Sequence record: ON184125
DNA from: Escherichia phage PC3
Strand: one strand, 5' to 3'
Length of the DNA stretch: 64,000 bases
A program made the position numbers and the translations under genes. Under the pieces are notes generated by a model. That model searched no databases. It saw nothing but the letters and a program-made list of their open reading frames with translations, and was not told the origin of the DNA. The first letter of the stretch is position 1. Each line of letters starts with the position of its first letter. Positions 1 to 34,199 of the stretch are shown in pieces.

Positions 1-2
1 TC

Positions 3-2558
3 GCTCTCAATACTCCACCAACAATCGTGGACGTGTATGCTGATGGGAAACGTCTTTCGGAATCCAAATATTCACTAGATGGGAATGTAATCACTTTCAG
101 TCCTTCTTTGCCACCCAACACAGAACTCCAGGTGATTGAATATACTCCTATTCAATTGGGTAATGGCGGTGGTTCTAGTTCTTCTACGATTACTTGGGTC
201 TATAATGGGGGTTCAGCGATTGGCGGTGAAACCGAAATCACGTTGGACGTCGTTGTTGACGATGTTCCGGCCATTGATATAAACGGAAGTCGCCAGTATA
301 AAAATCTGGGATTCACATTCGATCCATTAACCAGTAAAATCACTCTTGCGCAAGAACTGGAACCAGAGGATGAAGTTGTTGTAATTATCAATGGAACACC
401 AAACATCTATAATCAAATTGATTATACTTTGCGGGAAGTGGCTCGTGTAACCAATGTTAAAGATACAGAGGTCGTTTATTTTAGTGTTGGTGCTGCGTTA
501 AGTGGGTATAAAGTTATTTATGACAAGGAGACGCAAAGGGCTTATCCCTTGCCTGCTGATATTGCCCCAGGTACTACTGCTATCAGTCTTAGTCCTTCCG
601 CTGTACTTGTGCATTCAGCGGGTTCTGTAGATCTCGGGGAATTGGCCGTATCTCGTGAGGAATACGTTACATTGTCTGGGTCATTTGATACCGGTGTAAC
701 AGTTAATACCAAGAATGAATTAGTTGTCTTTACAGATGGGAAGTATCGCTGGGATGGGGAATTGCCTAAAGAGGTTTCTGCTGGCTCAACCCCAGGGAGT
801 GCTGGTGGTACTGGTGCAGGAAAATGGTTAAGTGTTGGTGATGTAAGTTTAAGAAGTGACCTGGCTGATGATGACGGAGTTGATTTAGTTAACGGAGCAG
901 TCAAGGATAAAGATTTTGAGCTTTACAAAAGGCAATCAATTGCAAAAAATAGATTTAATTTCGCTTTTGGGAATAAATACTCAAGAAGCTTTAACAATAA
1001 TTTGCGCTTACAGTTGCAAACTTATGTGGAGAATGTATTTAACTTTGCACCAAAAGCGGTGTCACTTCCAAGTGGGCGGGTGGTATGTATCTACACAGTG
1101 AAGGATGGTGCTAATATTGACCCAGGACAGGACGGCACACCTATGCACATTGATTACCTAATATCTGATGATAACGGTGTGAACTGGACCACTGGAACTG
1201 TTGTTAACAAAGGGCCAGGATATGCCACTTCTGAAACGGTACTATTCCTAAATAATCTTGATGGGTATTTGTATTGTTTCTTTACATCAATGAAGGGGAT
1301 TACGGGGTGGGGGCATGCACAACAAGGAACTAACCCTGACACAACATCAACTATTGAATATGTCATATCAAAGGATGGTGGCAATACATGGAGCACCCCT
1401 GTTGATATTACGCCATTGGTTAAACCATCTGGTGCTTACTTCTCATCAATTGCACCTACACAAGTCGGGTACATAAATGGCAAGCCTGCAATTCCTTATT
1501 ATTATTTAACTCAACTATCTACCGGAATAGTTGAGGGGTATATCACAGTTGATGATAGCGGTAACTACACCTACGGTGAAGATGTCAGGAAAGACACGGA
1601 TACCGATACTCTCGGTACATCTGGCGGTGAAATTGGTTTCGGAAATTTTTATGACGGAACACCGTTTGCCATTGAGCGCGCAGCAGATACGACCACTAAG
1701 CCTTACAAAATAGCCATTCAAAAGCTATTGATGCAAGATTCTAGTGGAAAGTGGGTTGTAAAAGGACAGTTCCCTACCACTAACTGTATGGCGTCGTTCT
1801 TACGCGTTGGCCCTGATTATGGTTTTGATAAGGATTATCTCTTTGTTATCGCACCTGTTGGTCAATCAGGTAATTACGAAGGACGTGCAAACATTAGAGT
1901 ATTCGACTGCTCTGACGATTTTAGCAATCCTATTGATCGCGGCATGATAACAGACACAAATGCTTTGGAGGCAGGTTACAGTTCAACCGTGCTTCTATCT
2001 TCTGGTTCATTTATGAGTATGTGGAACGGTAGACAGTGGACGATCAGCAATTCAATTTACACTATTAACAGGCTTGCGGGTAACGTGATTATCCCTGTCC
2101 CGTTTTGCGGCACTATTAAAATTGTTGACATTAGAAAGACTTTTGCACCCGATTTAAGAATCAACGAGCGAGTGATTGGTCTTGCTGACGGCAAAGAATA
2201 TACATGGAACGGTTCATCATTTGTGCTTGGTATTTCGTCACCAACGAAAACGCTAACAACTGAAACAACTACATTAGATGCCAACTCTTGCGACGTATTT
2301 TATCTCGACGCTGGAAGTAATGGATCAGTGATAACGTCAATCACTGGTGGATATATCGGACAAAGGATATCAATACTTCCGTTATCCGGCAACACTGTTG
2401 TGACGCTTTCAAAACAAGCGTCCGGCGTCTCTGTCACCGACAGAATTATGTATAATACAGAAACCGGGAAGACAAAATACAAGACAAACGGGGAGATTGT
2501 AGAGTTAATAAAAACGAACTACGGATGGTATTTAAACAAATCAGCAAATGCATCATAA
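3..2558 (+). CDS. Tailspike protein 1 (5' partial; BNR/Asp-box sialidase-like domain)
   Basis: Open frame runs off the window start. Carries the ~110-aa module shared with the next tailspikes (VTNVKD...SAGSVDLGELAVSREEYV...NTKNELVVFTDGKYRWDG) and two Asp-box motifs (SDDNGVNW, SKDGGNTW). Confidence 0.75.
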   Translation, partial: ALNTPPTIVDVYADGKRLSESKYSLDGNVITFSPSLPPNTELQVIEYTPIQLGNGGGSSSSTITWVYNGGSAIGGETEITLDVVVDDVPAIDINGSRQYKNLGFTFDPLTSKITLAQELEPEDEVVVIINGTPNIYNQIDYTLREVARVTNVKDTEVVYFSVGAALSGYKVIYDKETQRAYPLPADIAPGTTAISLSPSAVLVHSAGSVDLGELAVSREEYVTLSGSFDTGVTVNTKNELVVFTDGKYRWDGELPKEVSAGSTPGSAGGTGAGKWLSVGDVSLRSDLADDDGVDLVNGAVKDKDFELYKRQSIAKNRFNFAFGNKYSRSFNNNLRLQLQTYVENVFNFAPKAVSLPSGRVVCIYTVKDGANIDPGQDGTPMHIDYLISDDNGVNWTTGTVVNKGPGYATSETVLFLNNLDGYLYCFFTSMKGITGWGHAQQGTNPDTTSTIEYVISKDGGNTWSTPVDITPLVKPSGAYFSSIAPTQVGYINGKPAIPYYYLTQLSTGIVEGYITVDDSGNYTYGEDVRKDTDTDTLGTSGGEIGFGNFYDGTPFAIERAADTTTKPYKIAIQKLLMQDSSGKWVVKGQFPTTNCMASFLRVGPDYGFDKDYLFVIAPVGQSGNYEGRANIRVFDCSDDFSNPIDRGMITDTNALEAGYSSTVLLSSGSFMSMWNGRQWTISNSIYTINRLAGNVIIPVPFCGTIKIVDIRKTFAPDLRINERVIGLADGKEYTWNGSSFVLGISSPTKTLTTETTTLDANSCDVFYLDAGSNGSVITSITGGYIGQRISILPLSGNTVVTLSKQASGVSVTDRIMYNTETGKTKYKTNGEIVELIKTNYGWYLNKSANAS

Positions 2559-2564
2559 CAATAA

Positions 2565-2589
2565 ACCCCGCTTCGGCGGGGTTCTTATT
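2565..2589 (+). terminator. Rho-independent terminator after TSP1
   Basis: ccccgc-ttcg-gcgggg stem-loop followed by TTCTTATT. Confidence 0.6.
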
Positions 2590-2620
2590 ATAACTTTGTT
2601 CATAAATTTATTAGTTCAGA

Positions 2621-2631
2621 CTAAATACCCC
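2621..2631 (+). promoter_or_regulatory. Putative late promoter (CTAAATAcccc)
   Basis: Motif ~27 nt upstream of the TSP2 ATG; recurs before late genes. Confidence 0.45.
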
Positions 2632-2657
2632 ATATTGGTCATCTTTGGGGTATTATC

Positions 2658-5207
2658 ATGATTTCTCAATTCAATCAACCACGCGGCTCCACTTCCATAG
2701 AAGTTAACAAACAATCTATCGCTCGAAATTTCGGTGTCAAAGAAGACGAAGTCATTTATTTCACTGCTGGTATTGATCTCAGTGGATTTAAAGTAATTTA
2801 TGATGAGTCTACCCAACGGGCTTATTCTCTTCCTTCAGGTATTGTTTCAGGAACGACTGCGATAAGTCTGAACGAACAAGCCATCCTCACTCATTCCGCT
2901 GGTTCTGTTGACCTTGGGGAATTAGCAGTAAGCCGCGAAGAGTATGTAACCTTACCTGGTTCATTTGATACCGGTGTAACTGTTAATACTAAGAATGAAT
3001 TAGTTGTATTTACTGATGGTAAGTACCGTTGGGATGGGGCATTACCTAAAGTAGTTCCTGCTGGCACAGACCCTACTCTTCCAGGGAGTGGTTATATTAG
3101 GTGCTCCAATCAGTTCACAAGCACACAGACCCGTGAGGCGTTGCGCCGTAGCTATGCAACAGCAGGCTATAATCTAGTAGATGGTAGCTTTGAGTCGGGC
3201 GGTACACTAGTGAACGCCAACGATGTGCTACTACAAGAACGCACTGGTAAGGCGTTCTCTGGTCCTGCTGGTATAGTTGTCGCTGGGACTAACCCGATAA
3301 CTGGTGGTTACAAAGTTGCTGGAATATACAAACATTTCTCCTCTTTTTACGAGATGATTGCGTCCACGGAGGCAGAGTTACCTGTAGATTCAGTATGCTC
3401 AACCGGCGGTACAATGTGGGTCAGGTCTGCTTCCCAGCCAGCATTAACATCATTTACCCCTATAAGTGCGATTTGCGGGGATGATTTCGGCATAACCGCT
3501 GGAGAGTCTGTCTCTGGCCAGACTATATCTGAATTCCTAACTGTAGCTTACACATCAGGGTGCCGTGGGTACTTCAAGTCAGTCGGTGAAGTTACTGTAA
3601 CCAGCAATATAGAACTATTGTCGATTGATAAAAACTTAGTTGTTGATTGGACTGGTATAAAGTTGTTCGGGGCATCTGATGGGGTGGAAATGCACTTGTC
3701 ATCAACCGAGATTCGGTCTTCACTTCTAGCTGATATGGTAAGTGGCTCCACAGTTGTGCAGGTGGATGGGGCTGTAGAAGGAGATTTGATTTATATAGAG
3801 GACAACAAGACGTATGAGACTCAGTGGAATTTTAACTCAAGGGAGTTGTTTATTGCAGAGCGTGAATCTGGTTCTAGTATGAAAGTTGATAGGCCAGCGC
3901 TATTCAATCATTTAGTAGCAAACAACGTTAAGGTCAACAGGTACAAACCGGTAAGGTTGATTTTCAATAACTTCAAGATGGAGCACTTCAACAATCGTGA
4001 TAACTCATCTTTTGTTAATATAGGCTCCGCATCATTCGGGGTTTCATCTTCATGGTTTCGTGGTTTTTATATGCCAGTCTTTTCTGGTGACGTGGAAACC
4101 AGTGGTGGTTCTTCGTACTTATTGATAGCCTGCTATATGCCAAGAATTGGCAATGTAGTTGCTAATAGGTGTCAGTATCCTATCAGCCCTGCGGCGGGTA
4201 CTTACGATACAGTTATTGATAGCATCACAGCATCATTCTGTCGACATGCTGCCTCCCCAACAACATGGTTCAACAAGTTCGAGGTTAAAAAGTGCTTCGG
4301 TTATAATAACTTCGCCACGATGGACTCGCACGCTGGTTTTGATGCTAAATGGCGTAACGTATTTGCCACCGAAGAATATGATATGCCAAATATAAGATGT
4401 CTTGGTGGTGAGCTGACAGATATCAATATAGTTGCCAGTTTGGGCACAACCCCAGCAGAAGACCCTCAGATAGGTATCGTCACATTTACTGGTGATGCTT
4501 CTATGCACCGAGACTGGATCGCTACTAATGTTGCTCTAAATTATAAAAACCGGACGGATGATATTTTCGCATTACCGTGGCAGGCTGATAATGTCTATTA
4601 CGAAAATATTAACTGCATGGGTGGTTTTATTAGATGTGTAAACACAGCATCAAAAATAAAAACAGTAACATTAACAAACATCAATGCCTGCGTGAGACTG
4701 GTAGGTGACTGCGGAAATCTGAAAACATTAATAAACAACAGGGTAATTCCAGATGATAGTCTCTACATGTATGAGAATGCACCGAACGGGAAGAAAACTA
4801 CATTATGGGAAGTTAACTGTGGGCATACTTCGGGGGCTTCTGCTAACAAAGTTTTAAAGATTTTTGATAACTATGGAACATTAGAATCGCAAAACCTACT
4901 AGTAAAAATTAAGTCGTGTTCTTCATATAATAACGGAGGATCCGTTGCTTATATTGAGAAGACGTACCTAGTAAATCATAAGCTCAGCGCGAATTCTTCC
5001 GCGTCGATATCAGGACCTGTGAATGAAACTCGCATAAACGGCGTGACAGATTCGGACATATCACTCAATGTAACATTAACTAATTCTGCGGGATACACAC
5101 AGTCACCAGATATAAACGCGCATTTCTTTGAGCTAACTATAGCTACAACCACAAGTAGACCGAATAACGTATTCGGTATAACTGTAGAGATATCAAAACT
5201 CAATTGA
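2658..5207 (+). CDS. Tailspike protein 2
   Basis: 849-aa ORF; the conserved module lies at residues ~15-130 and is ~90% identical at DNA level to the TSP1 copy; CTAAATA motif 27 nt upstream. Confidence 0.7.
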   Translation: MISQFNQPRGSTSIEVNKQSIARNFGVKEDEVIYFTAGIDLSGFKVIYDESTQRAYSLPSGIVSGTTAISLNEQAILTHSAGSVDLGELAVSREEYVTLPGSFDTGVTVNTKNELVVFTDGKYRWDGALPKVVPAGTDPTLPGSGYIRCSNQFTSTQTREALRRSYATAGYNLVDGSFESGGTLVNANDVLLQERTGKAFSGPAGIVVAGTNPITGGYKVAGIYKHFSSFYEMIASTEAELPVDSVCSTGGTMWVRSASQPALTSFTPISAICGDDFGITAGESVSGQTISEFLTVAYTSGCRGYFKSVGEVTVTSNIELLSIDKNLVVDWTGIKLFGASDGVEMHLSSTEIRSSLLADMVSGSTVVQVDGAVEGDLIYIEDNKTYETQWNFNSRELFIAERESGSSMKVDRPALFNHLVANNVKVNRYKPVRLIFNNFKMEHFNNRDNSSFVNIGSASFGVSSSWFRGFYMPVFSGDVETSGGSSYLLIACYMPRIGNVVANRCQYPISPAAGTYDTVIDSITASFCRHAASPTTWFNKFEVKKCFGYNNFATMDSHAGFDAKWRNVFATEEYDMPNIRCLGGELTDINIVASLGTTPAEDPQIGIVTFTGDASMHRDWIATNVALNYKNRTDDIFALPWQADNVYYENINCMGGFIRCVNTASKIKTVTLTNINACVRLVGDCGNLKTLINNRVIPDDSLYMYENAPNGKKTTLWEVNCGHTSGASANKVLKIFDNYGTLESQNLLVKIKSCSSYNNGGSVAYIEKTYLVNHKLSANSSASISGPVNETRINGVTDSDISLNVTLTNSAGYTQSPDINAHFFELTIATTTSRPNNVFGITVEISKLN

Positions 5208-5226
5208 CACACCACAAATAAAAACT

Positions 5227-5255
5227 AGCCCTGCTTTGGCGGGGCTCTTTTTGTT
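5227..5255 (+). terminator. Rho-independent terminator after TSP2
   Basis: agccctgc-tttg-gcggggct hairpin plus CTTTTTG. Confidence 0.55.
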
Positions 5256-5395
5256 GTACCACAAACAAACCATTATGTAGACTATTTCAGTCAATCCTGA
5301 CTTAACTAACCTGAGAAATCCCCTATGGTAAATGAACCAGATAACGTAACTCTAGCCAGACTCGAAGAGAGACTGAGAAACATTTTTGAAAACCA

Positions 5396-5423
5396 AAACC
5401 CCGCTTCGGCGGGGTTCTTATTA
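5396..5423 (+). terminator. Terminator hairpin (duplicate of 2565..2589)
   Basis: Same ccccgcttcggcggggttcttatta sequence. Confidence 0.55.
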
Positions 5424-5454
5424 TATCCATGTTCATAAATTTTATTAGTTCAGG

Positions 5455-5465
5455 CTAAATACCCC
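5455..5465 (+). promoter_or_regulatory. Putative late promoter (CTAAATAcccc)
   Basis: Identical copy upstream of TSP3. Confidence 0.45.
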
Positions 5466-5497
5466 ATATTGGCAAATCCTCTATGGGGTATCTTCAA

Positions 5498-7906
5498 ATG
5501 ACCAGAAACGTCGAGAGCATCTTTGGAGCGGTCGTAACAGCTCCGCACCAGATTCCATACACTTACACAGCAACGGGCGGAGAGAAGTTTATCTCCCTCC
5601 CTTTCTACCCTGTCACTGGTATAGTCACAATCAACGGTGGTATGCAAGTTCCGTTAGACAACTTTGAAATCGATGGAAATACGTTGAATCTCGGACGCGC
5701 ATTATCCAAAGGTGACGTTGTGTTCTGTCTGTTTGACAAGATTCTGTCTCCAGAAGATTATAAAACCGGGGTTCGAATCTATAAGTTTCAGGCTATAGGA
5801 GGTGAAACCGAGTTCACTCCTGATTACACATCTTATGGAGTCCAATCTCTTTATATCGGTGGTGAGTACAAAACACCCGAAATTGAATATTCCTATGACA
5901 GCACGACAGGGAAAGTGACTTTACAAACTGCGCTGACTGCAGGCGTTTGGGTAGTCGCTGAAATGTCTGTTAAACAACCGAATATCAGTCCGTTGTTTGA
6001 CCGAAGTATTCAAGAAATCGCTCGTGCTACTAACGTCAAGGATAGTGAAGTAATCCTCAGCACGGATACTACTCAGTCCCTCAATGGTAAGAAGGTTGTT
6101 TATTCTGTTAGTGAGCAGAAGGCATATGGGTTGCCTACATTGCCTACTAACGTATATATTTCTTCCGTTAATGGTGACCAACTAACATACAATCCTGGTG
6201 GGATTGTTGTTGACCTGCTCCCTGCACCCAATGATGTAACTCCAGTGGAGAATGAGTTGCAGGTATATAAAACGGCTATGGTTACTGATGGGGGAACATT
6301 AGTAAATTCTGGCTTATCTGGTGTTTCTTCTGCAATTAAGCGAACCATTGATAGCCATTTTAAAGACTACTATAACGTTAAAGATTTTGGTGCTGTTGGT
6401 GACGGAGCTACTGATGATACGGTAGCCATAAAAGCAGCTATAGCTTATGCTGGCACCACAAAAGGCGTGGTTTATTTCCCGGATGGTAACTATAAAATAA
6501 GCAGTACTCTTGCTCTACCATCGAATGTATCAGTAATAGGGAGAAGTCGTGAATCAGTTATTATAACGAAAACGACATCCACCACCGTTACAGTTCTGGT
6601 GACAGCGCCTGCACTATCTGGAGGGTATACCGGAACCCTGCCTACAGATATGAATGCGGTTATTTGTTTAGGGGATTCTAGTAGTTCAAGATGGTCCGGT
6701 GTCATCACAGGGGTTACTCTGTATGGGACAAAAACTACAACGGAAAACCACGCGGTAGAATTTGGTATCGTAAATGCAGGCGTGGTATCCGACGCCACGA
6801 TAGAAGACGTCTATATTTACGATTGCAAGTATGGGCTAATTCTCCCTGTTGTATTTGCGTCGCGAGTAGGAAACAACCGCGTTACCGCATGTCTCGGTGG
6901 GGTATTTATAAACAACGGCACTTCATGCGTAATATCTACTAACTATAGTAATAGTTGCCGTGATTATGGGCATTGCTATCGGGATCTTAAATACTCTGTT
7001 ATAGAGGCTAATGCCTGTGATCACACTAACAGGAACGACTATTATCCGGACAGGACAAGAGTGTGTTATGGCTATATATTACAGAACCTGCTAGGGGTAA
7101 CGGTAACTGGGAATGGTCAAGAAGGCACTCTGGGTATTAACTGGAGATTGGATAATTTCGACCATAGCTCATTCACCAATAACACCAGTATTAGACTTGG
7201 TTCTGATTACACAGGCCCGTCTAACATATCATGGCTAGAATTAAATGGAGTGGCGCGCAACAGCATCATTGAGAACAATGTATCTTATGAGTACAACTCT
7301 AATGGGATGTTGTTTGGTGGGGCCGTAGCTGGGCAACACCATAATATTTACATCTCCGATATTACGTTTTTTAACGCAATATTGCGTAACAACATTGTAA
7401 GGTCTACACGAAATGGGGTTCCGGTGGAGGCTGGTTGGCTCAACAATGTTACCAGAACGGTGGCGAATTCATCCGCCAAAATCAGGCCAGACCGTACTTT
7501 CTTAGCGAATGACCCCGGTTCGCCTGAAATTACAGTTCAATCAGGCACCAATGCGGTGATATCATACGGCGAGTATACCGTACATAACATAAATTATGTC
7601 GGAGATTTTGCTCATATATTCGGTGTGTTTGATGTGACAATTGAATGGAGTTCCGGCACCAGTCAGTTCATATCTGTGACAGGATTTCCTGTCGCGCGGG
7701 ATTACGCATACATAGCAGTAACAGGGGTGAACAACGGGGACATCGGTTTTACCTCTGGAAATATTCCAGCCAGCTTTCGAATGAACATCGGGAACACTGG
7801 AGGAGCGTTCTTTACTGAAGGTGAAAAAACGCTTCGCATTGATGCAGTTGTGTCCGGTAAACGTTTGTATATTAGCTACGACGGGTGGTATCGGGTTAGC
7901 CCTTAA
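5498..7906 (+). CDS. Tailspike protein 3 (pectate-lyase-like right-handed beta-helix)
   Basis: Motif NVKDFGAVGDGATDDTVAIKAAIAYAG...VVYFPDGNYKISS typical of beta-helix glycanases; divergent copy of the shared module; start chosen by alignment with the TSP2 leader (alternative ATG 5483). Confidence 0.7.
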   Translation: MTRNVESIFGAVVTAPHQIPYTYTATGGEKFISLPFYPVTGIVTINGGMQVPLDNFEIDGNTLNLGRALSKGDVVFCLFDKILSPEDYKTGVRIYKFQAIGGETEFTPDYTSYGVQSLYIGGEYKTPEIEYSYDSTTGKVTLQTALTAGVWVVAEMSVKQPNISPLFDRSIQEIARATNVKDSEVILSTDTTQSLNGKKVVYSVSEQKAYGLPTLPTNVYISSVNGDQLTYNPGGIVVDLLPAPNDVTPVENELQVYKTAMVTDGGTLVNSGLSGVSSAIKRTIDSHFKDYYNVKDFGAVGDGATDDTVAIKAAIAYAGTTKGVVYFPDGNYKISSTLALPSNVSVIGRSRESVIITKTTSTTVTVLVTAPALSGGYTGTLPTDMNAVICLGDSSSSRWSGVITGVTLYGTKTTTENHAVEFGIVNAGVVSDATIEDVYIYDCKYGLILPVVFASRVGNNRVTACLGGVFINNGTSCVISTNYSNSCRDYGHCYRDLKYSVIEANACDHTNRNDYYPDRTRVCYGYILQNLLGVTVTGNGQEGTLGINWRLDNFDHSSFTNNTSIRLGSDYTGPSNISWLELNGVARNSIIENNVSYEYNSNGMLFGGAVAGQHHNIYISDITFFNAILRNNIVRSTRNGVPVEAGWLNNVTRTVANSSAKIRPDRTFLANDPGSPEITVQSGTNAVISYGEYTVHNINYVGDFAHIFGVFDVTIEWSSGTSQFISVTGFPVARDYAYIAVTGVNNGDIGFTSGNIPASFRMNIGNTGGAFFTEGEKTLRIDAVVSGKRLYISYDGWYRVSP

Positions 7907-7915
7907 TTTTATTAT

Positions 7916-7940
7916 AAAGGTCCCATTCGGGACCTTTTCT
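7916..7940 (+). terminator. Rho-independent terminator after TSP3
   Basis: aaaggtccc-attc-gggaccttt plus T-run. Confidence 0.6.
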
Positions 7941-8224
7941 TATATAGAGTTTAGTGTCTGTTGTGTATGCAAGTATTGTTGGTAATAATGGTATTAAAGA
8001 AGCGTATACCTGAGTTCTACAGAAAGGATGGAAAGAATTTGTTACTCCTGCTGGTTCAAGGTGAGGTTTAATACCAGACCGATGTGCATGGTTAGAGGCT
8101 GCTTACCCGTCTAGAATCAATAAACAAATTCTAGGTTGGTTAGCTGAATTGAGAATCGGTAAATAACTTTACTTACATGCCTCCCCACGTTGGGAGGCTT
8201 ACTTAGAAAAACAAAGAGGTCATT

Positions 8225-10450
8225 ATGAACGAAATGTTCTCACAAGGCGGTAAAGGCTCTACTGGTATTCTTACCAATAAGCAAGCCATTGCTCGTAAGT
8301 TTGGTGTTAAGCAAAATGAAGTAGTCTACTTTGCTGTGGGAGTGGACTTGGGTGGCTACAAAGTAATCTATGACAAGTCTACCCAACGTGCTTACTCATT
8401 ACCTGTACTTCCAGTAGGAACCACTGCCGTAAGCCTCAATAAACATGCAGTCCTGGTTCATTCCGCAGGCACAGTTGATTTGGGGGAACTGGCTGCTACA
8501 CGTAGAGAGTTCGTGAACCTATCCGACTCGTTTGCTACTGGTTTAGTTGTGAATACTAGAAATGAATTACTATTTCATAATGGCATAGGTTACACCTACT
8601 TAGGTTCCTTACCTGTAACTATTGTCGCAGGAACTAACCCAGTTGGTAACGCTGACTGGAAGCCGCAGACAGATCCTAATTTACGGGACGTGCGTGCTTT
8701 TGGGGTTGTCGGTGATGGGTCTGATGAGGCATCTAGTTTACAGTTAGCCATTAACTCGGGGAATGTTTTTGTTCCTCCGGGCATGACAATTTCCCATTCA
8801 CAAGTCAACATACCAAAAGGTACGATTTTTACTTTCGGTCACGGTGCTGGGTTGACATCATTGACCGCTAATGCTCTTAATTTCGTCAGCGAGAGCCAAT
8901 TCAGCTTGCTTTCCCCTGCGGCTTCCGGAGCAACGTCCATCACATTAACATCTGAGGTGGCAGGAACTGGGTATACTCGGGCGTTGGTAATACGCACTGA
9001 GGACACAAGTGACGCTTGGTATATTGCCAACGCACAGAATCCGGATGTAACCGGATACCAAGGAGAATCTTTTTTAATATCGTCCATATCAGGTGCTACT
9101 GTAAATTTAGCAACGGCTTTACCGTGGGACCTAACTACCTCCAATTCGGTTATTTATCTTATAAAAGGCAACGCTACTAAGTTCATCGGGGGAATCTTAA
9201 AAAATTCTGCGTCAGGGTCTAGCTACATGTACCAATCTGTGGGGGCTTCGCTTATAGAGTTCCATGGTACTGTTTTTGATTATAATGGAAATGGCGGTTC
9301 AAGGCATGATAACGCGTACGGTGTGGTGTACCACAACACTACCCATACCGGGCGTGTCGGAAATGGTAATATATTTTTTGGTTACGGATCTACAGATTGT
9401 ACTGTTACAGGTACGACCCACATTGGAGGGACCGGTGGGGATGCGCAAATAATATCTTATGCTGGCTGCCGTAACATCCGTACATCCCATAACACCCTAA
9501 AACCTACGGCCAACAACGGAGGTATATATTTTGGTGCAAAATGCTTCGACTGCAACACCCATGCTGATTATATTAAAGGCGGAAAGTATGGGGTTATGGG
9601 GGCATTTGGTGCTCAGTGTATTGTTGTGGACTCGCTGGCGGCAGACGACCAAATATCAGGCGCTATCTTTATGGAGCAATGCCAGAACTTTACCATCACA
9701 AACCCGTCTATTAGATTCGTAAGGACTGGCGCTCAAACAACCGCTGCGATATTAATTAAGGACTGCGATTATGTGACAGTGGATGCAAATGTCCCTGTAA
9801 ATACAGGGGCGAACGGGTATATAGTCAGTATGTATAGCGCTCCTGCATACGCCCTAACAGTTAGAAAAAATATAAACATTACGGTAAAAGGTACTGGCAG
9901 TGTATACCTTACTAGCCCTATGACCAATTTCTCGATTAAAGACTGTTTAACATCCGGCGGTATGACAGTTTACTACGCCAATGGTACGTCTACTTACGGC
10001 AAGGTTACGCGTAATAGTTGCCGGTTTTTAGTAGCTCAAAGTTTCCAATATTGTGACATAGATAGTAACACCATTGCGGGGGATTCTGATTCTGAGGGTA
10101 TACGCCTTGGTGGTAACTGTAGATGGAACAACGTATATAGAAACAAGGTTAGTGGGGTTACTACGGCATTCTTCGTTAACTCAGCACCCGCAAATCTATA
10201 CACAAATGCGTTTCATGATGATAACGTAATAGATTACTCAACAGTAACCACCTTCGTATCATCTCAGACTGGAACCACCACACCAGTTACTGGAGTGTTA
10301 AACCCCGCTCCAGTGAGGAATTTCTTTCTCCCGGCAACAGGTTGGCAGGATAGCCCTACGGTAAAAAGAACTGTTAGTGGCTGGAGGCATAAAGGCACTA
10401 CAACAGGCACAGCGTCTGATTGGTTTACTATCCCCTCGTCAGAAGCGTGA
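8225..10450 (+). CDS. Tailspike protein 4 (beta-helix)
   Basis: Shared module at N-terminus (FGVKQNEVVYF...SAGTVDLGELA), then VRAFGVVGDGSDEASSLQLAINSG beta-helix signature; SD aaagagg upstream. Confidence 0.75.
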   Translation: MNEMFSQGGKGSTGILTNKQAIARKFGVKQNEVVYFAVGVDLGGYKVIYDKSTQRAYSLPVLPVGTTAVSLNKHAVLVHSAGTVDLGELAATRREFVNLSDSFATGLVVNTRNELLFHNGIGYTYLGSLPVTIVAGTNPVGNADWKPQTDPNLRDVRAFGVVGDGSDEASSLQLAINSGNVFVPPGMTISHSQVNIPKGTIFTFGHGAGLTSLTANALNFVSESQFSLLSPAASGATSITLTSEVAGTGYTRALVIRTEDTSDAWYIANAQNPDVTGYQGESFLISSISGATVNLATALPWDLTTSNSVIYLIKGNATKFIGGILKNSASGSSYMYQSVGASLIEFHGTVFDYNGNGGSRHDNAYGVVYHNTTHTGRVGNGNIFFGYGSTDCTVTGTTHIGGTGGDAQIISYAGCRNIRTSHNTLKPTANNGGIYFGAKCFDCNTHADYIKGGKYGVMGAFGAQCIVVDSLAADDQISGAIFMEQCQNFTITNPSIRFVRTGAQTTAAILIKDCDYVTVDANVPVNTGANGYIVSMYSAPAYALTVRKNINITVKGTGSVYLTSPMTNFSIKDCLTSGGMTVYYANGTSTYGKVTRNSCRFLVAQSFQYCDIDSNTIAGDSDSEGIRLGGNCRWNNVYRNKVSGVTTAFFVNSAPANLYTNAFHDDNVIDYSTVTTFVSSQTGTTTPVTGVLNPAPVRNFFLPATGWQDSPTVKRTVSGWRHKGTTTGTASDWFTIPSSEA

Positions 10451-10467
10451 CTTATAGCTGTAAAACT

Positions 10468-10492
10468 AAGGCCCCAAATGGGGCCTTTTCTT
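10468..10492 (+). terminator. Rho-independent terminator after TSP4
   Basis: aaggcccc-aaat-ggggcctt plus T-run; same downstream tail as the 7916 terminator. Confidence 0.6.
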
Positions 10493-10860
10493 ATATAGAA
10501 TTTACTGTTTGCATTACCCTAACCGATACTGCTGTTAAGGTTATTACTTGCCCAGAGATATTAAACATACCCAATTGAATACCTTCTACCATGAAAGGGT
10601 CTGTCGAACCAAGTTTGTAAGTGGCTAATACGTTATCTCTGTTGGCAATGTCTGTACCCTGTACCTTAACACTAGCATCTGAACCTACTACTGTGGTTCC
10701 ATTGGTTCGCCTTGTTTGCGTTCTCCATTCCCTGGCTGTACCAGCACCCCTGCAATAGTTCCTGAAGAATGCGGAGGTCTTGAATCCATGACCATAACCA
10801 CAGAAAGATAATCAAAGCCCCTTCGGGCTTATTTCTTTCTATTCCTCGGTTGGTTGTATA

Positions 10861-10868
10861 CTAAATAT
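10861..10868 (+). promoter_or_regulatory. Putative late promoter (CTAAATAT)
   Basis: ~35 nt upstream of the 1612-aa gene. Confidence 0.4.
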
Positions 10869-10901
10869 CTCTATAATGGCACCTATCGATGGAGCATCAA
10901 A

Positions 10902-13900
10902 ATGCAAGAAATGAACCTCAACCGCCGCCCATATTGGGATGACTGGAATCCAGAGAAGCGTTTTTCGCGCATCCTATTCCGTCCGGCACCTATCAAAGTT
11001 CAGACGCGTGAACTGAACCAGATGCAGACCATCTTCCAGGATCAACTGGAGAAACTTGGCAACCATCTGTTCAAAGACGGTTCAATGGTTATCCCCGGCG
11101 GCCTAACGATCACCAACACTGCTGTGTCCATGAAGTTCACTCTGGCTGGTGGTAGTGAGTTCACTGATCTGGAAGGTATCTCCGAACTCTATGTTCTGGG
11201 CAAGGACAACAATGCGAAAGCACGCGTCCTGTCCTTGGAACGTTATCCAGCTGAGCCAGATACAATGTATGCCATCTTAGAGATGACTGAAAGTGGTAGT
11301 TCAGACGGTTTCGAAGCTGGCGACAATCTATATTTCAACACCTATGACGTGAACGATAACTTCATCCGTGTCGGCTATGGTGTGGCCGATACTGTTGGTG
11401 GTTCGATTGTCGCTCGCATGACAAAGGGTGTTTATTTCGTTCGTGGTATGTTCCTGGATGTTGAACCAGCCACTCTGATCGTAGACAACGCATCGAACTC
11501 TACATCTCACCGCATTGGCTTCAAAGTTACAGAAACAATCGTGACCGAAGCAGAAGATGAAAGTCTGTTCTCCAATGCTCAGGGTACTCCGAACTCTAAA
11601 GCCCCTGGTGCGCATCGCCTGCGCGTCGACCTCGTGTTGTCTCGCTACGGTTATGATGAAGAAGTGGCCGACTTCGTCGAACTGGCGAAGGTGAAAGACG
11701 GTCGCATTCAGTCCATGGTCACCCAGTCAACGTACAACATCCTCGAAGACGCCATGGCTCAGCGTACCTATGAGACCAATGGTGACTACAACGTCTCTAC
11801 TCACCAGATCGACCTGCGTGAACATCTGAAACAGAACAACAACGGCGGCGTTTACACTCCGGCTGAAGGCGGTGATGAAAGCAAATTCGTGGCGGTTATG
11901 AAGCCAGGCATTTCCTACGTTCGTGGTCGTCGTATCGAAAACCTCGGCGAAGAGCTGGTCATAATTGACAAAGCCCGTGACACTGATATCCTGAACAACA
12001 ACCCTGTGGCTGTTTCGACTGGAAACTATCTGGTGTCCAAGAACTCCAAAGGGGTTCCGGTTGTCTCCCGCACAATCCGCTACAAGTTCCTGAACGCATC
12101 CAGCGATGTGCAGGCCACCGCCCTGTTGATTTCGGCAGAGCGCTCTGGTACTGAATTCCGTCTGTATATGCGCGACCTTGTTGTGACTGGGGACATGGGT
12201 ACGGTGACCAAAGTTGCATATGAAGAAAGCGGTACAACGATGTTCTCCTGCGAACTGGAGTCCAATCAGTTCAGTCAGAGTTCAGCAATTGACCTGATCT
12301 TCCCTCTGCCTGTATTTGGTGTGAAGACTCTAGCACCTACAGGCACCATCGACATCAACTACACCGTCCTGCGGTCAAACAAGATCACGTTGAACGCCGC
12401 TGGTGCAGGATCAATCTCTGCTCCTCTGGGTTACAGCTTCAGCCCTGAGTTTTCACTGTACTCCGCAGCGAAAGCAGACGGCACTGCAGCTCAGTTTGAT
12501 ATCTCTTCGGGACTGTCCCTGGCTGGTACTCCGGTTGGTTCAGCACTGCAGATTTCCCTGGGCGCGGGGTACGCCAACCAGTCTATCAACCTGTTGGCAT
12601 TGATGGTCCGCACCACAGCGACGATCAAGACCAAGACTGTTACTGAAGTCACCGAGACTGTGACGTTTACTGCGGCGGCCAGCGCACAACTTGGGAACCA
12701 TGATGGTTACAAGCTGATCAGTGTGAAGAACGCAAATGGCGCTGACGTCACTTCTAACTTCACTCTGGACGGCGGCCAGCGTGATGCTGCATACTACCTT
12801 TCTAACCTCATATCGTCCACAGGAGCCATTTCAGGGACGTTCACGGTGGTGTATCAGTATTTCGCTCACAGCTCTGGTGATTTCTTCACAGCGGACTCCT
12901 ATTCGTCCATCAACTACCCAGACATCCCGAACTATGTTTCATCCAGTTCTGGTACTGTGTATGGGTTGGCCGACAGTCTGGACTTCCGTCCCAAGATCAC
13001 CAGCGGAGCGTCTGACACGGACATGGTTCGCCCGAACACCGCGATCATCCTAGATGCAGAGTACTATCTACCTCGTATTGATGCTGTGTATCTGGCCGAC
13101 AACGGTGTGTTCAACGTTGCGCGTGGTGTGAGTTCCAACAACCTGGCTTCCCCTGCGATCCCAGACAACAGCATGCGCCTGTATGAATTGATGATCCCAC
13201 CATACACGGCCAACATTGACGACATCCAGATTCGTACTATCGACAACCGCCGCTACACGATGCGCGATATCGGTAAACTGGAGACCCGTATCTCCAATGT
13301 CGAATATTACACCTCACTGTCTCAGCTGGAATCCTCGGCGATGTCACAACAGGTGTTCGATCCAATTACTGGCAACCCGCGCTTCAAGAACGGTATCGCA
13401 GCAGACCCGTTCAAAGATTTCCGTCTGATCGACGATTTGTCTGCAGACTGGGTGGGTTCAATCGACACTGACAATGGTCGTCTGCGTCCGTTTGTTCAGC
13501 AGAACGCGATTGACCTGACGCCAGTCGGTTGGAACAACGTTCAGGATGGCATGGTTGTATGCAACTACACCCGTGAGATCTCTGTCCGACAGGACTATGC
13601 AACCACGACCATCAACGTGAACCCGTATGCGGTGTTCAACTGGGAAGGATTCCTGAAACTGAACCCAACTACTGATTACTGGTTTGAGAACTACTATGTT
13701 ACTCCACGTGTGATCAACGAAACGATCAACACCCGTGGTGCGATCAAAGAAGGTTCCGTGTATGGCACATGGCGTACTGTGTCCGTGTCTGAGCGTGTGT
13801 GGGAACCGCATGGTGCAGGTGGTGTATGGTGGGGCTATCGCTACCGCACGACTGTGTCTACCCGTGACGTCACCACGTACACGTACACCGACAAGACGAC

Positions 13901-15740
13901 CACTACCCTGACTGGCGAGCAGATCGTTGAAACGCAGGTAATCCCATACATGCGCAAAACGAACATCAACTTCGAAGCCACAGGTCTGCGTCCGTTCACT
14001 CGTGTGTATCCGTTCTTCTCTGGACGTGATGTGAGCGCGTACTGTACCCCAAACGGTGGTGTACTGGGCGGTGCGTTGAACACTGATGCCAACGGCAACA
14101 TCAAAGGTGTGTTTGCGGTTCCTCAGAACGAGACTATCAAGTTTAACACGGGTGACAACGTCTTCCGTCTGACTGACAGTCCTGTGGACAGTAAGTCTGC
14201 TGATGATACCCTGACCAATGCTGAGGCTGTTCATAAGTCCTTCGGCAAGAAACAGGGCATCCAGAAGACTTATGTCAACACCCGCGTCCTGGGATACACT
14301 GCAACCAAGTCTACGGAAAACAAAACAGAGACGGTTGAAGTCGCGAAGTGGAAAGATCCTATCGCCCAGTCCTTTATGGTTGCCACCAATATCGGCGGCG
14401 AATACATCGAAGGGATTGAAGTCTTCTTCTCTACCAAGTCCCGTGATATCCCGATCACTCTGGAAATCCGCGAGATGAGCAATGGTCTGCCAGCAACGAC
14501 TGTCGTCACTCGTAAGACTCTGAATCCATCAGAAGTTTCCACCTCCACAGACTCTTCTGTGCCGACGATGTTCAAGTTTGATTATCCTGTGTATCTGCAG
14601 GCGCAAACCGAGTTCGCGATTGTTCTCTTGGCCAACACTCAGGACTACAACGCATACATCGCAGAGATGGGTAAGAAGAACTTGCTGACCAACGAGTTCA
14701 TTGCCAAACAGCCGTACACTGGCGTGTTCTTCACATCTTCAAATGGTACGACCTGGACTCCAAACCAGACTGCCGATATGAAGTTCCGTGTATATCGCTG
14801 TAACTTCTCCGCTGGTTCAAACATCGTGACCTTCGATGCTAAAGTCGGTCCGAAGATCCGCCCTCTGGGTCTGAACACCGTGAAATGTGTCAACGGTTCT
14901 TCAACTGTTACTGTGTACGCTCCGGGGCATGGCCTGACTGCGGGCGAAAGTGTTACTCTGTCTGGGTTGACGGGTGGTTGCGGTTTCACTCCTGAGCAAC
15001 TGAACGCTCAACACACTGTGACTGATGCGACGTTCACGACGTTCAAATTCGTTCTGAGTTCCAACGCCGACTCCGACGGTCAGATTGGTGGTGAAGCGGC
15101 TTCTTTCCTAGGCAACTACTTGGTAGACATGTTCTACGCAAGCGTCACCAATTCAGCCCTAGAAGGATCTATGTTGAAACTGGAATACCGCTATCGCGAT
15201 GCGACCTCCAACTCATTCTCTGATTGGGTTGAGTTCGAATCCGATACGGACGTGTCTCTGCCGACGGAAGGTATCTATCGTCAGGTGGGCGACTTCCAGG
15301 TTCGTGCAACCATGACTCGCAACGAGAGTAATGTCTACACGGCTCCAATGATCGACGGTGATGATTTCACTATCATCTTCAACACCTACGGTGTGGATCC
15401 GTTTGAAGATGTGTTCAGCTATGTGACCAAGGATATCGGATTCGATAACCCTTGCACCACTCTGAAGCAATACTTCGGCGCGATGCTGCCTTCTCAGTCT
15501 TCAATGACTGTGCAAGTTAAACTGCTGCGCGCAGGCCAGGAGATGGATGATGTGGCATGGGAAACTGTGACACCGACATCCCCTCTGGTCAATGACGGTT
15601 CTACATTCTTCGAATATGAGTATGACAAGACTGTAGACAGCACCAATCCTTTCGTTGGCCTGAAGATCCGCCTGCTGGTCAGAGGCAACCGCACAGCACC
15701 GCCGTCATTCAAAGATTTCCGTTTGATTGCTCTGGCATAA
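10902..15740 (+). CDS. Large virion structural protein (1612 aa; putative tail fibre/baseplate-associated)
   Basis: Long ORF between the tailspikes and neck genes; CTAAATA motif at 10861 and GGAG 7 nt before the ATG; function inferred from position only. Confidence 0.5.
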   Translation: MQEMNLNRRPYWDDWNPEKRFSRILFRPAPIKVQTRELNQMQTIFQDQLEKLGNHLFKDGSMVIPGGLTITNTAVSMKFTLAGGSEFTDLEGISELYVLGKDNNAKARVLSLERYPAEPDTMYAILEMTESGSSDGFEAGDNLYFNTYDVNDNFIRVGYGVADTVGGSIVARMTKGVYFVRGMFLDVEPATLIVDNASNSTSHRIGFKVTETIVTEAEDESLFSNAQGTPNSKAPGAHRLRVDLVLSRYGYDEEVADFVELAKVKDGRIQSMVTQSTYNILEDAMAQRTYETNGDYNVSTHQIDLREHLKQNNNGGVYTPAEGGDESKFVAVMKPGISYVRGRRIENLGEELVIIDKARDTDILNNNPVAVSTGNYLVSKNSKGVPVVSRTIRYKFLNASSDVQATALLISAERSGTEFRLYMRDLVVTGDMGTVTKVAYEESGTTMFSCELESNQFSQSSAIDLIFPLPVFGVKTLAPTGTIDINYTVLRSNKITLNAAGAGSISAPLGYSFSPEFSLYSAAKADGTAAQFDISSGLSLAGTPVGSALQISLGAGYANQSINLLALMVRTTATIKTKTVTEVTETVTFTAAASAQLGNHDGYKLISVKNANGADVTSNFTLDGGQRDAAYYLSNLISSTGAISGTFTVVYQYFAHSSGDFFTADSYSSINYPDIPNYVSSSSGTVYGLADSLDFRPKITSGASDTDMVRPNTAIILDAEYYLPRIDAVYLADNGVFNVARGVSSNNLASPAIPDNSMRLYELMIPPYTANIDDIQIRTIDNRRYTMRDIGKLETRISNVEYYTSLSQLESSAMSQQVFDPITGNPRFKNGIAADPFKDFRLIDDLSADWVGSIDTDNGRLRPFVQQNAIDLTPVGWNNVQDGMVVCNYTREISVRQDYATTTINVNPYAVFNWEGFLKLNPTTDYWFENYYVTPRVINETINTRGAIKEGSVYGTWRTVSVSERVWEPHGAGGVWWGYRYRTTVSTRDVTTYTYTDKTTTTLTGEQIVETQVIPYMRKTNINFEATGLRPFTRVYPFFSGRDVSAYCTPNGGVLGGALNTDANGNIKGVFAVPQNETIKFNTGDNVFRLTDSPVDSKSADDTLTNAEAVHKSFGKKQGIQKTYVNTRVLGYTATKSTENKTETVEVAKWKDPIAQSFMVATNIGGEYIEGIEVFFSTKSRDIPITLEIREMSNGLPATTVVTRKTLNPSEVSTSTDSSVPTMFKFDYPVYLQAQTEFAIVLLANTQDYNAYIAEMGKKNLLTNEFIAKQPYTGVFFTSSNGTTWTPNQTADMKFRVYRCNFSAGSNIVTFDAKVGPKIRPLGLNTVKCVNGSSTVTVYAPGHGLTAGESVTLSGLTGGCGFTPEQLNAQHTVTDATFTTFKFVLSSNADSDGQIGGEAASFLGNYLVDMFYASVTNSALEGSMLKLEYRYRDATSNSFSDWVEFESDTDVSLPTEGIYRQVGDFQVRATMTRNESNVYTAPMIDGDDFTIIFNTYGVDPFEDVFSYVTKDIGFDNPCTTLKQYFGAMLPSQSSMTVQVKLLRAGQEMDDVAWETVTPTSPLVNDGSTFFEYEYDKTVDSTNPFVGLKIRLLVRGNRTAPPSFKDFRLIALA

Positions 15741-15789
15741 GTAGTATTAACAAGGCGGGGTTGCCCCGCCATTAACAGAGGATATTATC

Positions 15790-16038
15790 ATGCGTGGTGT
15801 AAAAGTACAAGGGCATGCATCGATGATGAGAAGCAGCTCTTGCCCTGGGGCTATCATCTGCACAGACAATGCTGCCGGTTTGGCAGCACTGAACGCTCGT
15901 CGAAATCAGGAAGAAAAGGACAAAACTATTGCAGCGCAGGCAGCGCAAATAGATCAACTGACAGCGATGGTACAACTCATGGCGGAACACCTCGGGATTG
16001 AACTCCCGTCAGGAGGCCAAGATGGCAACCCAAACTGA
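15790..16038 (+). CDS. Hypothetical protein (82 aa)
   Basis: ORF with gagga SD; overlaps next gene by 17 nt. Confidence 0.35.
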   Translation: MRGVKVQGHASMMRSSSCPGAIICTDNAAGLAALNARRNQEEKDKTIAAQAAQIDQLTAMVQLMAEHLGIELPSGGQDGNPN

Positions 16039-16360
16039 CACTGTGATCGATGTGAAAGCGATCCTCACCGGGGTGCTGACGGCGACGATAGTCTCTGTTG
16101 GCTCGGTTGTTTGGATGATGGGTAAATTTGAGAATCGCCTTGATGTGGTTGAGCGTGACTCCAACAAGGTCGACCTAATCCTCACCAAGGTGAACGATAT
16201 GAATGAGAAGATTGCTGTGTTAAACACAGACGTCAACTACGTCAAGCAGAACGTTGCTGAGTTGAAACTCAATAGCAACAGTCTATCCGACGACGTTCGC
16301 ACTTTACGTATCACCGTCGCTGATATCCAGAGCAACAAGGGGAATGGCAATGGCCGTTAA
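16022..16360 (+). CDS. Hypothetical membrane-anchored coiled-coil protein (112 aa)
   Basis: AGGAGG SD 5 nt upstream; hydrophobic segment ILTGVLTATIVSVGSVVWMM followed by heptad-like region. Confidence 0.45.
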   Translation: MATQTDTVIDVKAILTGVLTATIVSVGSVVWMMGKFENRLDVVERDSNKVDLILTKVNDMNEKIAVLNTDVNYVKQNVAELKLNSNSLSDDVRTLRITVADIQSNKGNGNGR

Positions 16361-23594: not shown

Positions 23595-23625
23595 AAACCC
23601 CGCTTCGGCGGGGTTTTAAATTTTT
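23595..23625 (+). terminator. Rho-independent terminator after gp18
   Basis: ccccgc-ttcg-gcgggg plus TTTTAAATTTTT. Confidence 0.6.
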
Positions 23626-24086: not shown

Positions 24087-24114
24087 ACCCCGCTGAGGCG
24101 GGGTTTTAGTTTTC
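24087..24114. terminator. Terminator hairpin between convergent genes
   Basis: accccgc-tgag-gcggggt plus TTTTAGTTTT. Confidence 0.5.
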
Positions 24115-33879: not shown

Positions 33880-33938
33880 ACATTTCAATAACGGGGCGAG
33901 AGGTATTATTGCCCCGTCTATTAATCGAGGAAATCGCA
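33880..33938 (+). repeat. Copy 1 of a ~45-bp direct repeat with internal hairpin
   Basis: ttcaataacggggcgagaggtattattgccccgtctattaatcgagg; second copy 260 bp downstream. Confidence 0.6.
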
Positions 33939-34139: not shown

Positions 34140-34199
34140 CAGTTTTCAATAACGGGGTGAGAGGTATTATTGCCCCGTCTACTATCCGAGGGTTGTACC
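34140..34199 (+). repeat. Copy 2 of the ~45-bp direct repeat
   Basis: ttcaataacggggtgagaggtattattgccccgtctactatccgagg. Confidence 0.6.

Follow-up and report, generated by a model that had tools for sequence, protein, structure and literature searches.

The window analysed here, a stretch of 64,000 nucleotides from Escherichia phage PC3 (record ON184125), carries four tailspike genes and one large VriC-like gene on its plus strand (by homology to CBA120), and the tailspike genes TSP3 and TSP2 are each preceded by a copy of the same short cassette. The favoured explanation, which as a whole is reasonably probable, is that the cassettes are resident expression modules within a scaffold along which tailspikes exchange their receptor-binding cargo. 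Each of the two family-conserved modules would consist of a terminator that closes the upstream tailspike gene, an AT-rich linker, a late promoter with the sequence CTAAATA and a leader. CTAAATA would be read by a gp55-like sigma factor without a -35 element, as in T4, and in the leader a promoter-proximal ATACCCC, together with the next three bases, would pair with GGGGTAT in the Shine-Dalgarno region. It is proposed that a transcript initiated further upstream carries both arms of this hairpin and therefore hides the ribosome site of the next tailspike, whereas a promoter of the -10 type starts transcription downstream of itself, so that RNA from the module's own promoter would lack the 5' arm and, beginning about 6 nucleotides past CTAAATA, would be translatable. 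Each tailspike would be expressed only from its own late promoter, with insulation at both the transcriptional and the translational level. The module, the leader and the N-terminal anchor domain of the following gene would form a fixed evolutionary scaffold, and the receptor-binding parts, which lie between direct-repeat pairs, with a TD-domain repeat as the left pair and the cassette as the right one, would be replaced by recombination together with their own 3' flanks. Such flanks persist in this phage as scars, namely a second terminator behind TSP3, a 153-nucleotide fragment and type-2 terminators with codons of a convergent gene.

Genome-wide counts refer to record ON184126.1 of phage PH4 (155,895 bp), positions 1-64000 of which are 100% identical to the window; PH4, the name used from here on, belongs to the Ackermannviridae, Aglimvirinae. 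Tailspikes are named according to the CBA120 nomenclature, by homology to the solved CBA120 tailspike structures. The genes and putative regulatory elements of the locus are as follows.

Ending at 2558 after wrapping around the record origin, plus strand: TSP4 gene, named by homology to the CBA120 structure.
2564-2593, plus strand: putative terminator A, stem-loop AACCCCGC-TTCG-GCGGGGTT followed by TTCTTATTAT (-15.3 kcal/mol, z = -4.0).
2594-2620, plus strand: AT-rich linker of cassette A, kept in both slots of Kuttervirus and Agtrevirus.
2621-2627, plus strand: CTAAATA, putative gp55-type late promoter of TSP3.
2624-2654, plus strand: leader hairpin A, with a 5' arm AAUACCCCA (2624-2632) that overlaps the promoter and a 3' arm UGGGGUAUU (2646-2654) that holds the Shine-Dalgarno sequence.
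2658-5207, plus strand: TSP3 gene, with a family-conserved anchor to about 3064 and a foreign receptor-binding part from 3312.
5227-5256, plus strand: putative terminator 1, which came in with the TSP3 receptor-binding part; homology to phage AV126 stops at 5244 in its 3' arm.
5397-5426, plus strand: putative terminator B, the same hairpin as terminator A.
5455-5461, plus strand: CTAAATA, putative late promoter of TSP2, at which conservation in distant genera begins exactly.
5459-5491, plus strand: leader hairpin B, in which AUACCCCAUA (5459-5468) pairs with UAUGGGGUAU (5482-5491) with the Shine-Dalgarno sequence inside; near-invariant in 17 Ackermannviridae loci.
5498-7906, plus strand: TSP2 gene (start in the record 5483); CBA120 TSP2 (PDB 6w4q) aligns from query residue 6.
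7916-7960, plus strand: putative type-2 terminator with its 'tail' after TSP2, 82% identical to positions 5938-5981 of Gamaleyavirus nithesis.
8225-10450, plus strand: TSP1 gene, named by homology to the CBA120 structure.
10468-10487, plus strand: putative type-2 terminator after TSP1, within a nithesis-like block.
10815-10867, plus strand: third cassette, with a hairpin (10815-10830), a linker and CTAAATAtctc at 10861, ahead of the VriC-like gene at 10902.
10902-15740, plus strand: the large VriC-like gene.

A preliminary description of the window had claimed that the segment 2563-2640 recurs at 5396-5472, and self-alignment bears this out with 4 mismatches and one indel of a single nucleotide over 78 columns (about 94% identity). 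The similarity of the two cassettes extends on to the Shine-Dalgarno sequence and the start codon. In each copy the terminator hairpin is followed by a linker of 38 nucleotides and the genus motif CTAAATAcCcc, and the exact 11-mer CTAAATACCCC occurs four times on the plus strand of the window (at 2621, 5455, 36294 and 39491), the chance expectation being 0.49 matches when one mismatch at most is allowed and both strands are counted. The copies ahead of TSP3 and TSP2 are both present in most of about 220-270 related genomes, and on this ground misassembly and a recent duplication confined to PH4 are both rejected. No difference specific to one slot is fixed between the terminator and linker halves of cassettes A and B. 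The complex variant ATCCATG occupies slot B in PH4 and slot A in S118, a hint of exchange between slots that is too thin to claim.

The comparison across related phages, which the preliminary description had proposed, confirms conservation of both copies and reveals that the promoter and leader are the most widely conserved part. Among 17 Ackermannviridae loci upstream of TSP2, collected via the TSP2 N-terminal domain, the stretch of about 50 nucleotides from CTAAATA to the ATG is almost invariant. Genomes of Kuttervirus and Agtrevirus share the terminator and linker too; Taipeivirus-like relatives lack the linker. At the distant loci (L022 and L024-L029, which include Taipeivirus-like and Serratia phages) similarity upstream of TSP2 begins exactly at CTAAATA, and the stop codon of the upstream gene abuts the motif with no terminator in between. 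The breakpoint falls in the middle of the linker in one further genome (L019). Conservation from CTAAATA onward in distant genera implies that promoter and leader are the indispensable unit, and the terminator and linker half is a lineage-specific addition.

Five terminator-like hairpins (2564-2583, 5227-5246, 5397-5416, 7916-7937 and 10468-10487) fold with -14.3 to -15.8 kcal/mol (z = -3.4 to -4.0), and all five combine a GC-rich stem-loop, a U-rich tract and a position at a gene end, as is expected of intrinsic terminators. Elements A and B are accordingly classed as of the intrinsic type and would terminate transcription. At the position of the third cassette relatives have an CCCCGCTTCGGCGGGG hairpin, and homology to them resumes at 10771-10832. 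The terminator hairpin CCCCGC-TTCG/TGAG-GCGGGG is also found behind two other genes (23597-23623 and 24087-24113), which marks it as a generic terminator of the phage that is not specific to the tailspike locus. An Rfam scan of 1-11500 at E <= 1 returned only sub-threshold chance matches (RsmY, Histone3 and BSnc120), all on terminator hairpins.

The fixed and the exchanged parts of the locus can be told apart by their homology breakpoints. When PH4 1-11000 is compared by BLAST with six complete tailspike loci of relatives, the alignment falls into conserved blocks separated by unrelated sequence. These blocks comprise 1-843, which corresponds to the N-terminal domains of TSP4, 2551/2566-3064, 5389/5399 to about 5976-6420, a weaker block at about 8182-8571, and 10771/10832 onward. 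The second and third of these run from the terminator hairpin through promoter and leader into the N-terminal anchor domain of the next gene. Their left edges (2551-2566 and 5389-5399) are the starts of terminator hairpins A and B and recur in dozens of other genomes among the matches listed, where the coordinates of more than 20 show them. The sequences shared with other phages, and the repeat at which they may begin, are the following.

612-793, plus strand: TD-domain repeat in TSP4, with its partner at 2892-3073 in TSP3 (81% over 182 nucleotides).
750-2583, plus strand: TSP4 receptor-binding part and hairpin A, 95.7% over 1834 nucleotides to a gp66-like tail protein of Gamaleyavirus nithesis.
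3312-5244, plus strand: receptor-binding part of TSP3 with terminator 1, 91.7% identical to Phapecoctavirus AV126.
8204-8688, plus strand: N-terminal part of TSP1, 86% identical to the tail spike of nithesis.
8685-10765, plus strand: remainder of TSP1 with the flank behind it, 97% identical to the tail spike of nithesis and the DNA that follows it.
8204-10765, plus strand: the entire block shared with nithesis, comprising Shine-Dalgarno sequence, TSP1, type-2 terminator and the 3' 85 codons of CDS0006 (10491-10765, minus strand).

Foreign homology ends at 2583, 5244, 5400 and 10765, the first of which is where hairpin A closes on its 3' side. On the left, the nithesis-like TSP4 part begins at 750, inside the TD-domain repeat, which adjoins the GTTA(I/V)SL recombination motif proposed for these tailspikes (PMC8432352). 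The breakpoints show that the exchanged unit is the receptor-binding part with its own 3' flank and not the whole gene. The left junction lies inside the gene at the TD-domain repeat and the right junction at the terminator hairpin, and the repeat pair 612-793/2892-3073 is a candidate for the left homology arm in the exchange of receptor-binding domains. The preliminary description had regarded each tailspike as a unit with portable boundaries that would ease the swapping of whole genes. The cassettes do coincide with recombination boundaries in the six relatives, but foreign homology begins inside genes and the notion of whole-gene swaps is not supported.

The strongest competing account, that every tailspike with its terminator and promoter is a portable cassette and that entire genes are exchanged, is unlikely. 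It would explain why cassette edges coincide with homology breakpoints, and two further facts speak for it: the whole of TSP1, from 21 nucleotides before the ATG to 315 nucleotides past the stop codon, is common to nithesis, and laboratory exchange of entire tsp genes gives viable phage (PMC11414711). However, promoter, leader and N-terminal domain never move with the variable part; the conserved blocks that begin at a terminator extend into the following gene, as far as about 3064 and about 6000-6400; and foreign homology starts within genes, at 750, 3312 and 8685. In the six loci examined it is the ends of N-terminal domains that mark the left breakpoints, not start codons or promoters. Even TSP1 is heterogeneous, with 86% identity in its N-terminal part versus 97% in the remainder, and the imported TSP1 block has no CTAAATA promoter.

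In place of CTAAATA, the region upstream of TSP1 (8157-8198) contains GGTAAATAAC and then a hairpin, GCCTCCC-CACGTT-GGGAGGC (-14.4 kcal/mol, z = -1.5), which ends 5 nucleotides ahead of the nithesis-like block. In the relatives that were fetched TSP1 follows only about 50-75 nucleotides behind TSP2, likewise without the CTAAATA motif. The branched tailspike pair gp66/gp63.1 of G7C-like phages (Gamaleyavirus; PDB 4qnl) shares homologous N-terminal domains with Ackermannviridae tailspikes. The TSP4 receptor-binding part and the whole of TSP1 in PH4 match, with 96-97% identity, two adjacent genes of the podovirus nithesis (locus L034, 1765-3598 and 3602-6236), which have the same terminator hairpin between them. 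The nithesis pair is contiguous (3598-3602) and has neither a CTAAATA promoter nor a leader hairpin, whereas in PH4 the two are 5.6 kb apart, separated by TSP3 and TSP2. These matches suggest that PH4 and nithesis may target the same E. coli surface polysaccharides, and the transfers of the TSP4 part and TSP1 were possibly linked.

Where the cargo came from can be read from the flanks that it brought along. Two features lie between terminator 1 and terminator B.

5248-5400, plus strand: Gamaleyavirus-derived fragment, 94.8% to PhAPEC7, where it lies directly 3' of the tailspike gene and its terminator.
5325-5438, plus strand: small open reading frame of 37 codons, a gp63-like remnant fused to terminator B.

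The fragment (153 nucleotides) consists of intergenic DNA and codons 1-24 of an N4 gp63-like gene, and its junction with terminator B shows the microhomology AAAACCC(C)G. The small reading frame was listed in the preliminary description as a possible frame of 36 codons; the frame exists and runs into terminator B, but it is a truncated gp63-like remnant and not a gene. Its start MVNEPDNVTLARLEERLRNIFENQ matches MGNEPDNVTLARLEERLRNIFENQ, residues 1-24 of the 110-residue protein PhAPEC7_69 (PHROG 5211), with one substitution, and the codons after the first 24 are read from terminator B. No full-length conserved frame was found, and the closest relative, RPN242, has the same TSP3 and lacks the fragment (5245-5398), so that an independent gene is rejected. 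The single hairpin of 16 nucleotides in RPN242 aligns to both terminator 1 and terminator B of PH4, the signature of a deletion or insertion between two hairpins. A longer copy of the same gp63-like fragment with an CCCCGCTTCGGCGGGG-type hairpin is present in AV101 (L008 14125-14357), behind TSP1 rather than TSP3, and represents the same kind of scar in a different slot.

The second terminator type reported in the preliminary description does exist, at 7917-7960 and 10468-10511 (82% identical in the repeat-family comparison), but it is no resident cassette in its own right and was imported with Gamaleyavirus tailspike sequence. It was said to follow TSP3 and TSP4, which is correct for the third and fourth genes in window order; as the order by CBA120 homology is TSP4, TSP3, TSP2, TSP1, the genes concerned are TSP2 and TSP1. 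What was taken for a conserved tail of the terminator is instead the end of a Gamaleyavirus gene that runs convergently on the minus strand, namely its last 6-7 codons (QT[VL]NSI*). After TSP1 this tail and the next 275 nucleotides correspond to the final 85 codons of CDS0006, a convergent gene of nithesis (PHROG 17779), with 82/85 identities by tblastn on the minus strand, cut off at 10765. The copy after TSP2 retains the hairpin and the minus-strand ...QTLNSI* only, with stop codons beyond. A search for the donor of the spacer 7961-8203 found this sequence in PH4 and RPN242 only, and past the last 6-7 codons its minus strand is full of stops. The gp63-like and CDS0006-like genes are full-length in the Gamaleyavirus genomes examined and truncated in PH4, which shows that transfer ran from a Gamaleyavirus-like phage to the PH4 lineage. 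The scars are thereby rare directional evidence, with G7C-like podoviruses as the donors of receptor-binding modules and these myoviruses as the recipients.

The leader hairpin is the element of the module that would act at the level of translation. In the leaders of TSP4, TSP3 and TSP2 the sequence (A)ATACCCC and the next three bases pair with GGGGTAT and the three bases preceding it, and GGGGT is the Shine-Dalgarno sequence, 6-8 nucleotides 5' of the ATG. The same arrangement of GGGGU in the 3' arm and the AUG outside the stem is seen for the genes at 36329 and 17402. TAAATACCCC forms the 5' arm of the hairpin. The predicted folds are the following.

TSP4 leader: -21.0 kcal/mol, z = -7.2.
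TSP2 leader: -16.3 kcal/mol, z = -3.1.
TSP3 leader in PH4, which has a deletion of 3 nucleotides: -12.4 kcal/mol, z = -1.9.
TSP3 leader in most relatives: -19.6 kcal/mol.
Leader of the gene at 36329: -17.2 kcal/mol, z = -3.6.
Leader of the gene at 17402: -10.2 kcal/mol, z = -3.7.

Leaders that begin 6 nucleotides past CTAAATA, the assumed start position, fold with only 0 to -5.7 kcal/mol. When the stems are registered on the two anchors ATACCCC and GGGGTAT, the columns past ATACCCC change on both sides between genes and pairing is kept in 12 of 13 leaders. Three columns covary (T-A / A-T / C-G; A-T / T-A; G-C or G.U / A-T / T-A), and two further stem columns are altered in the 17402 leader, which gives five two-sided columns in all among paralogous leaders. 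The loop varies from 5 nucleotides in the g33 leader to 13 in PH4 TSP3, and the hairpin is present at Kuttervirus, Agtrevirus, Taipeivirus-like and Serratia phage loci. Such compensatory changes argue that the pairing is under selection, and the position of the Shine-Dalgarno sequence suggests that the hairpin would repress translation. The hairpin also offers an explanation for the 'cCcc' of the genus motif as largely anti-Shine-Dalgarno sequence. In the VriC leader CTAAATAtCtc faces a GGAG Shine-Dalgarno sequence, and UCUCUA pairs with GGAG in the same geometry. The idea of insulated tailspike units put forward in the preliminary description is plausible, and owing to the leader hairpin the insulation is probably stronger than was proposed there.

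The inverted repeat ATACCCC...GGGGTAT could instead act as DNA, either as the operator of a dimeric regulator or as an extended promoter element, with no function in RNA. Such a role would fit a motif that is reported as CTAAATAcCcc regardless of structure, the one CTAAATAcccc site that has no pairing partner, and the invariance of orthologous stems, which are hence without classical covariation. It is nevertheless doubtful, and slightly more so than the exchange of entire genes. An arm spacing of 5-13 nucleotides and a stem of 9-16 bp fit an RNA helix better than a protein site, and the positions past the shared core covary between genes. Moreover, the 3' arm always lies 6-8 nucleotides before the ATG and carries the unusual GGGGU where unstructured leaders have GGAG or AAGGA, and the VriC leader repeats the geometry with a different pair of sequences.

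The annotated ATG of TSP2 at 5483 is located within the 3' arm of leader hairpin B and has no Shine-Dalgarno sequence, and the sequence of the CBA120 TSP2 structure aligns from the ATG at 5498 (MTRNVE...). The true start is probably 5498 rather than 5483, and the annotated start is not to be relied on.

There is good support for the inference that CTAAATA is a late promoter of the gp55 type. The motif occurs 11 times on the plus strand of the window and 0 times on the minus strand. Its 19 occurrences in the genome are about what base composition predicts, and 14 of the 19 lie 23-56 nucleotides 5' of an annotated start that has the same orientation, against a chance expectation of about 0.4. 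The genes behind it include TSP4, TSP3, TSP2, the VriC-like gene and the annotated tail tube and prohead core genes, and most are annotated as structural. The factor that presumably reads CTAAATA is encoded in the window.

62301-63086, plus strand: gp55-like late sigma factor (PHROG 234, 'late sigma transcription factor', E = 3e-52), in agreement with the record annotation.

A gp45-like clamp is annotated at 41760-42428, with a weak Pfam match below the cut-off. Pfam yielded nothing useful for the gp55 homologue and the two Gamaleyavirus remnant genes, for which PHROGs gave matches. CTAAATA has TAAATA in common with the T4 late consensus TATAAATA yet is not that consensus, which is absent from the plus strand of the window. 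T4 late transcription starts about 6 nucleotides past TATAAATA, and the start downstream of CTAAATA is placed by analogy at a similar distance. Distant relatives show no conservation 5' of CTAAATA, as expected of a promoter without a -35 element. A sigma-70 promoter scan of 1-17000 gave 22 sites versus 29 in shuffled sequence and none in the cassettes. 'Terminator plus late promoter', the label chosen in the preliminary description, is the best reading of the cassette.

It is very improbable that CTAAATA is no promoter and acts instead in transcribed RNA, for example as a processing site or a 5' stabiliser inside late transcripts that are long and polycistronic. In favour of this, the literature searched holds no experimental transcription start for the motif, its genomic count equals the compositional expectation and conservation that begins at the motif would suit an RNA element too. 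The strong bias in position and orientation, the likeness to TATAAATA and the presence of a gp55 homologue oppose it, and so does the occurrence of the motif before typical late genes, tail tube and prohead core among them, where no hairpin is present. With terminator-like hairpins immediately 5' of them, TSP3, TSP2 and the VriC-like gene would go untranscribed.

CTAAATAcccc is also found before an annotated ATP-dependent DNA helicase gene (39491-39523) and a hypothetical gene (36294-36329), and the motif is thus not confined to virion genes.

Several points weigh against the explanation by resident modules with a hairpin-forming leader. The U-tract behind hairpins A and B is broken up (UUCUUAUUAU). 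Orthologous hairpins are almost invariant, and the covariation comes from paralogous leaders rather than from the phylogeny of one leader. At genome position 145385 (minus strand) the Shine-Dalgarno sequence offers nothing with which CTAAATAcccc could pair, and the leaders at the CTAAATA sites 25939, 29480 and 21646 show little structure, which implies that cccc may in part be a promoter feature. The hairpin of TSP3 in PH4 itself is weakened by the deletion of 3 nucleotides. A terminator directly 5' of TSP3 and TSP2 would lessen read-through, so that the hairpin layer may be partly redundant there. The literature search found no transcriptome or mapping of transcription starts for Ackermannviridae.

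The elements are each of a known kind, namely a T4-like late promoter, an intrinsic terminator, a hairpin that hides a ribosome site and modular tailspike exchange. In T4 a late promoter within a hairpin controls translation of the genes e, soc, 49 and I-TevI (PMC3014915, PMC2988022), and segB and Aeh1 mobE are further cases. As in T4 e and I-TevI, a gp55-type late promoter would lie in the 5' strand of the hairpin and the Shine-Dalgarno sequence in the 3' strand, and long upstream transcripts could form the structure whereas transcripts from the embedded promoter could not. Unlike in T4, the core is CTAAATA instead of TATAAATA, and the targets are tailspikes and other virion genes and not lysis or homing-endonuclease genes. 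The upstream transcripts in PH4 would themselves be late, as they would stem from preceding tailspike or baseplate genes, and the likely purpose is therefore insulation gene by gene rather than early/late timing.

A published account names CTAAATAcCcc as a genus signature of these phages, one of a pair of 'unique regulatory motifs' (PMC7283392), and the CBA120 genome paper describes the late-promoter sequence as unidentified at that time (PMC3184105). Promoters, terminators and transcripts are mentioned nowhere in a 2024 family review. In the published descriptions consulted the motif is a sequence signature only; in PH4, by contrast, cCcc or tCtc is in most cases complementary to the downstream Shine-Dalgarno sequence, and a shared terminator and linker precede the motif at TSP3 and TSP2. 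The original description, as the 'Viunalikevirus' motif, is reportedly that of Adriaenssens et al. in Arch Virol in 2012.

For tailspike exchange in Ackermannviridae a model based on conserved N-terminal domains has been proposed (Sorensen et al. 2021, PMC8432352; PMC11414711), and PH4 agrees with it in that receptor-binding modules are common to distant phages. Both papers treat conserved 5' gene ends only, and the words 'intergenic' and 'terminator' occur 0 times in each. PH4 goes beyond the model with a right-hand boundary at the terminator hairpin or cassette and with scars that name a Gamaleyavirus donor. The literature searched contained neither this combination of elements in Ackermannviridae nor an account of what the genus motif does or of scars that reveal the donor.

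More tentatively, and a little short of an even chance, CTAAATAcCcc may throughout the family be a composite of late promoter and anti-Shine-Dalgarno sequence that insulates each spike, with the near-universal GC-rich terminator hairpins as right-hand crossovers between unrelated phage families. If so, tailspikes and some other virion genes would be translated only from their own late transcript, and receptor-binding modules with arbitrary 3' flanks could be inserted without disturbing the neighbouring spike. Ackermannviridae phages such as CBA120, S117, Det7 and AV101 are being engineered for host range via tailspike swaps. For such constructs, a fixed scaffold of promoter, leader and anchor recommends cuts where the N-terminal anchor domain ends and behind a terminator hairpin. 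The native CTAAATA leader is best kept intact, and an added spike without its own promoter may remain untranslated.

Two observations concern the wider window. The second motif of the genus, TTCAAT-N14-TATWAT, occurs at 33884-33909 and 34145-34170, 261 nucleotides apart (0.02 expected by chance). Both copies contain an internal inverted repeat CGGGG(C/T)...GCCCCG and precede small genes (33939-34139 and 34200-34424), and they are likely to act as early or middle promoters in which a hairpin or operator is embedded. Annotated homing endonuclease genes at 24106-25794 (minus strand) and 32010-33875 break up the block of structural genes, the former between tail genes and the latter after the major head protein gene.

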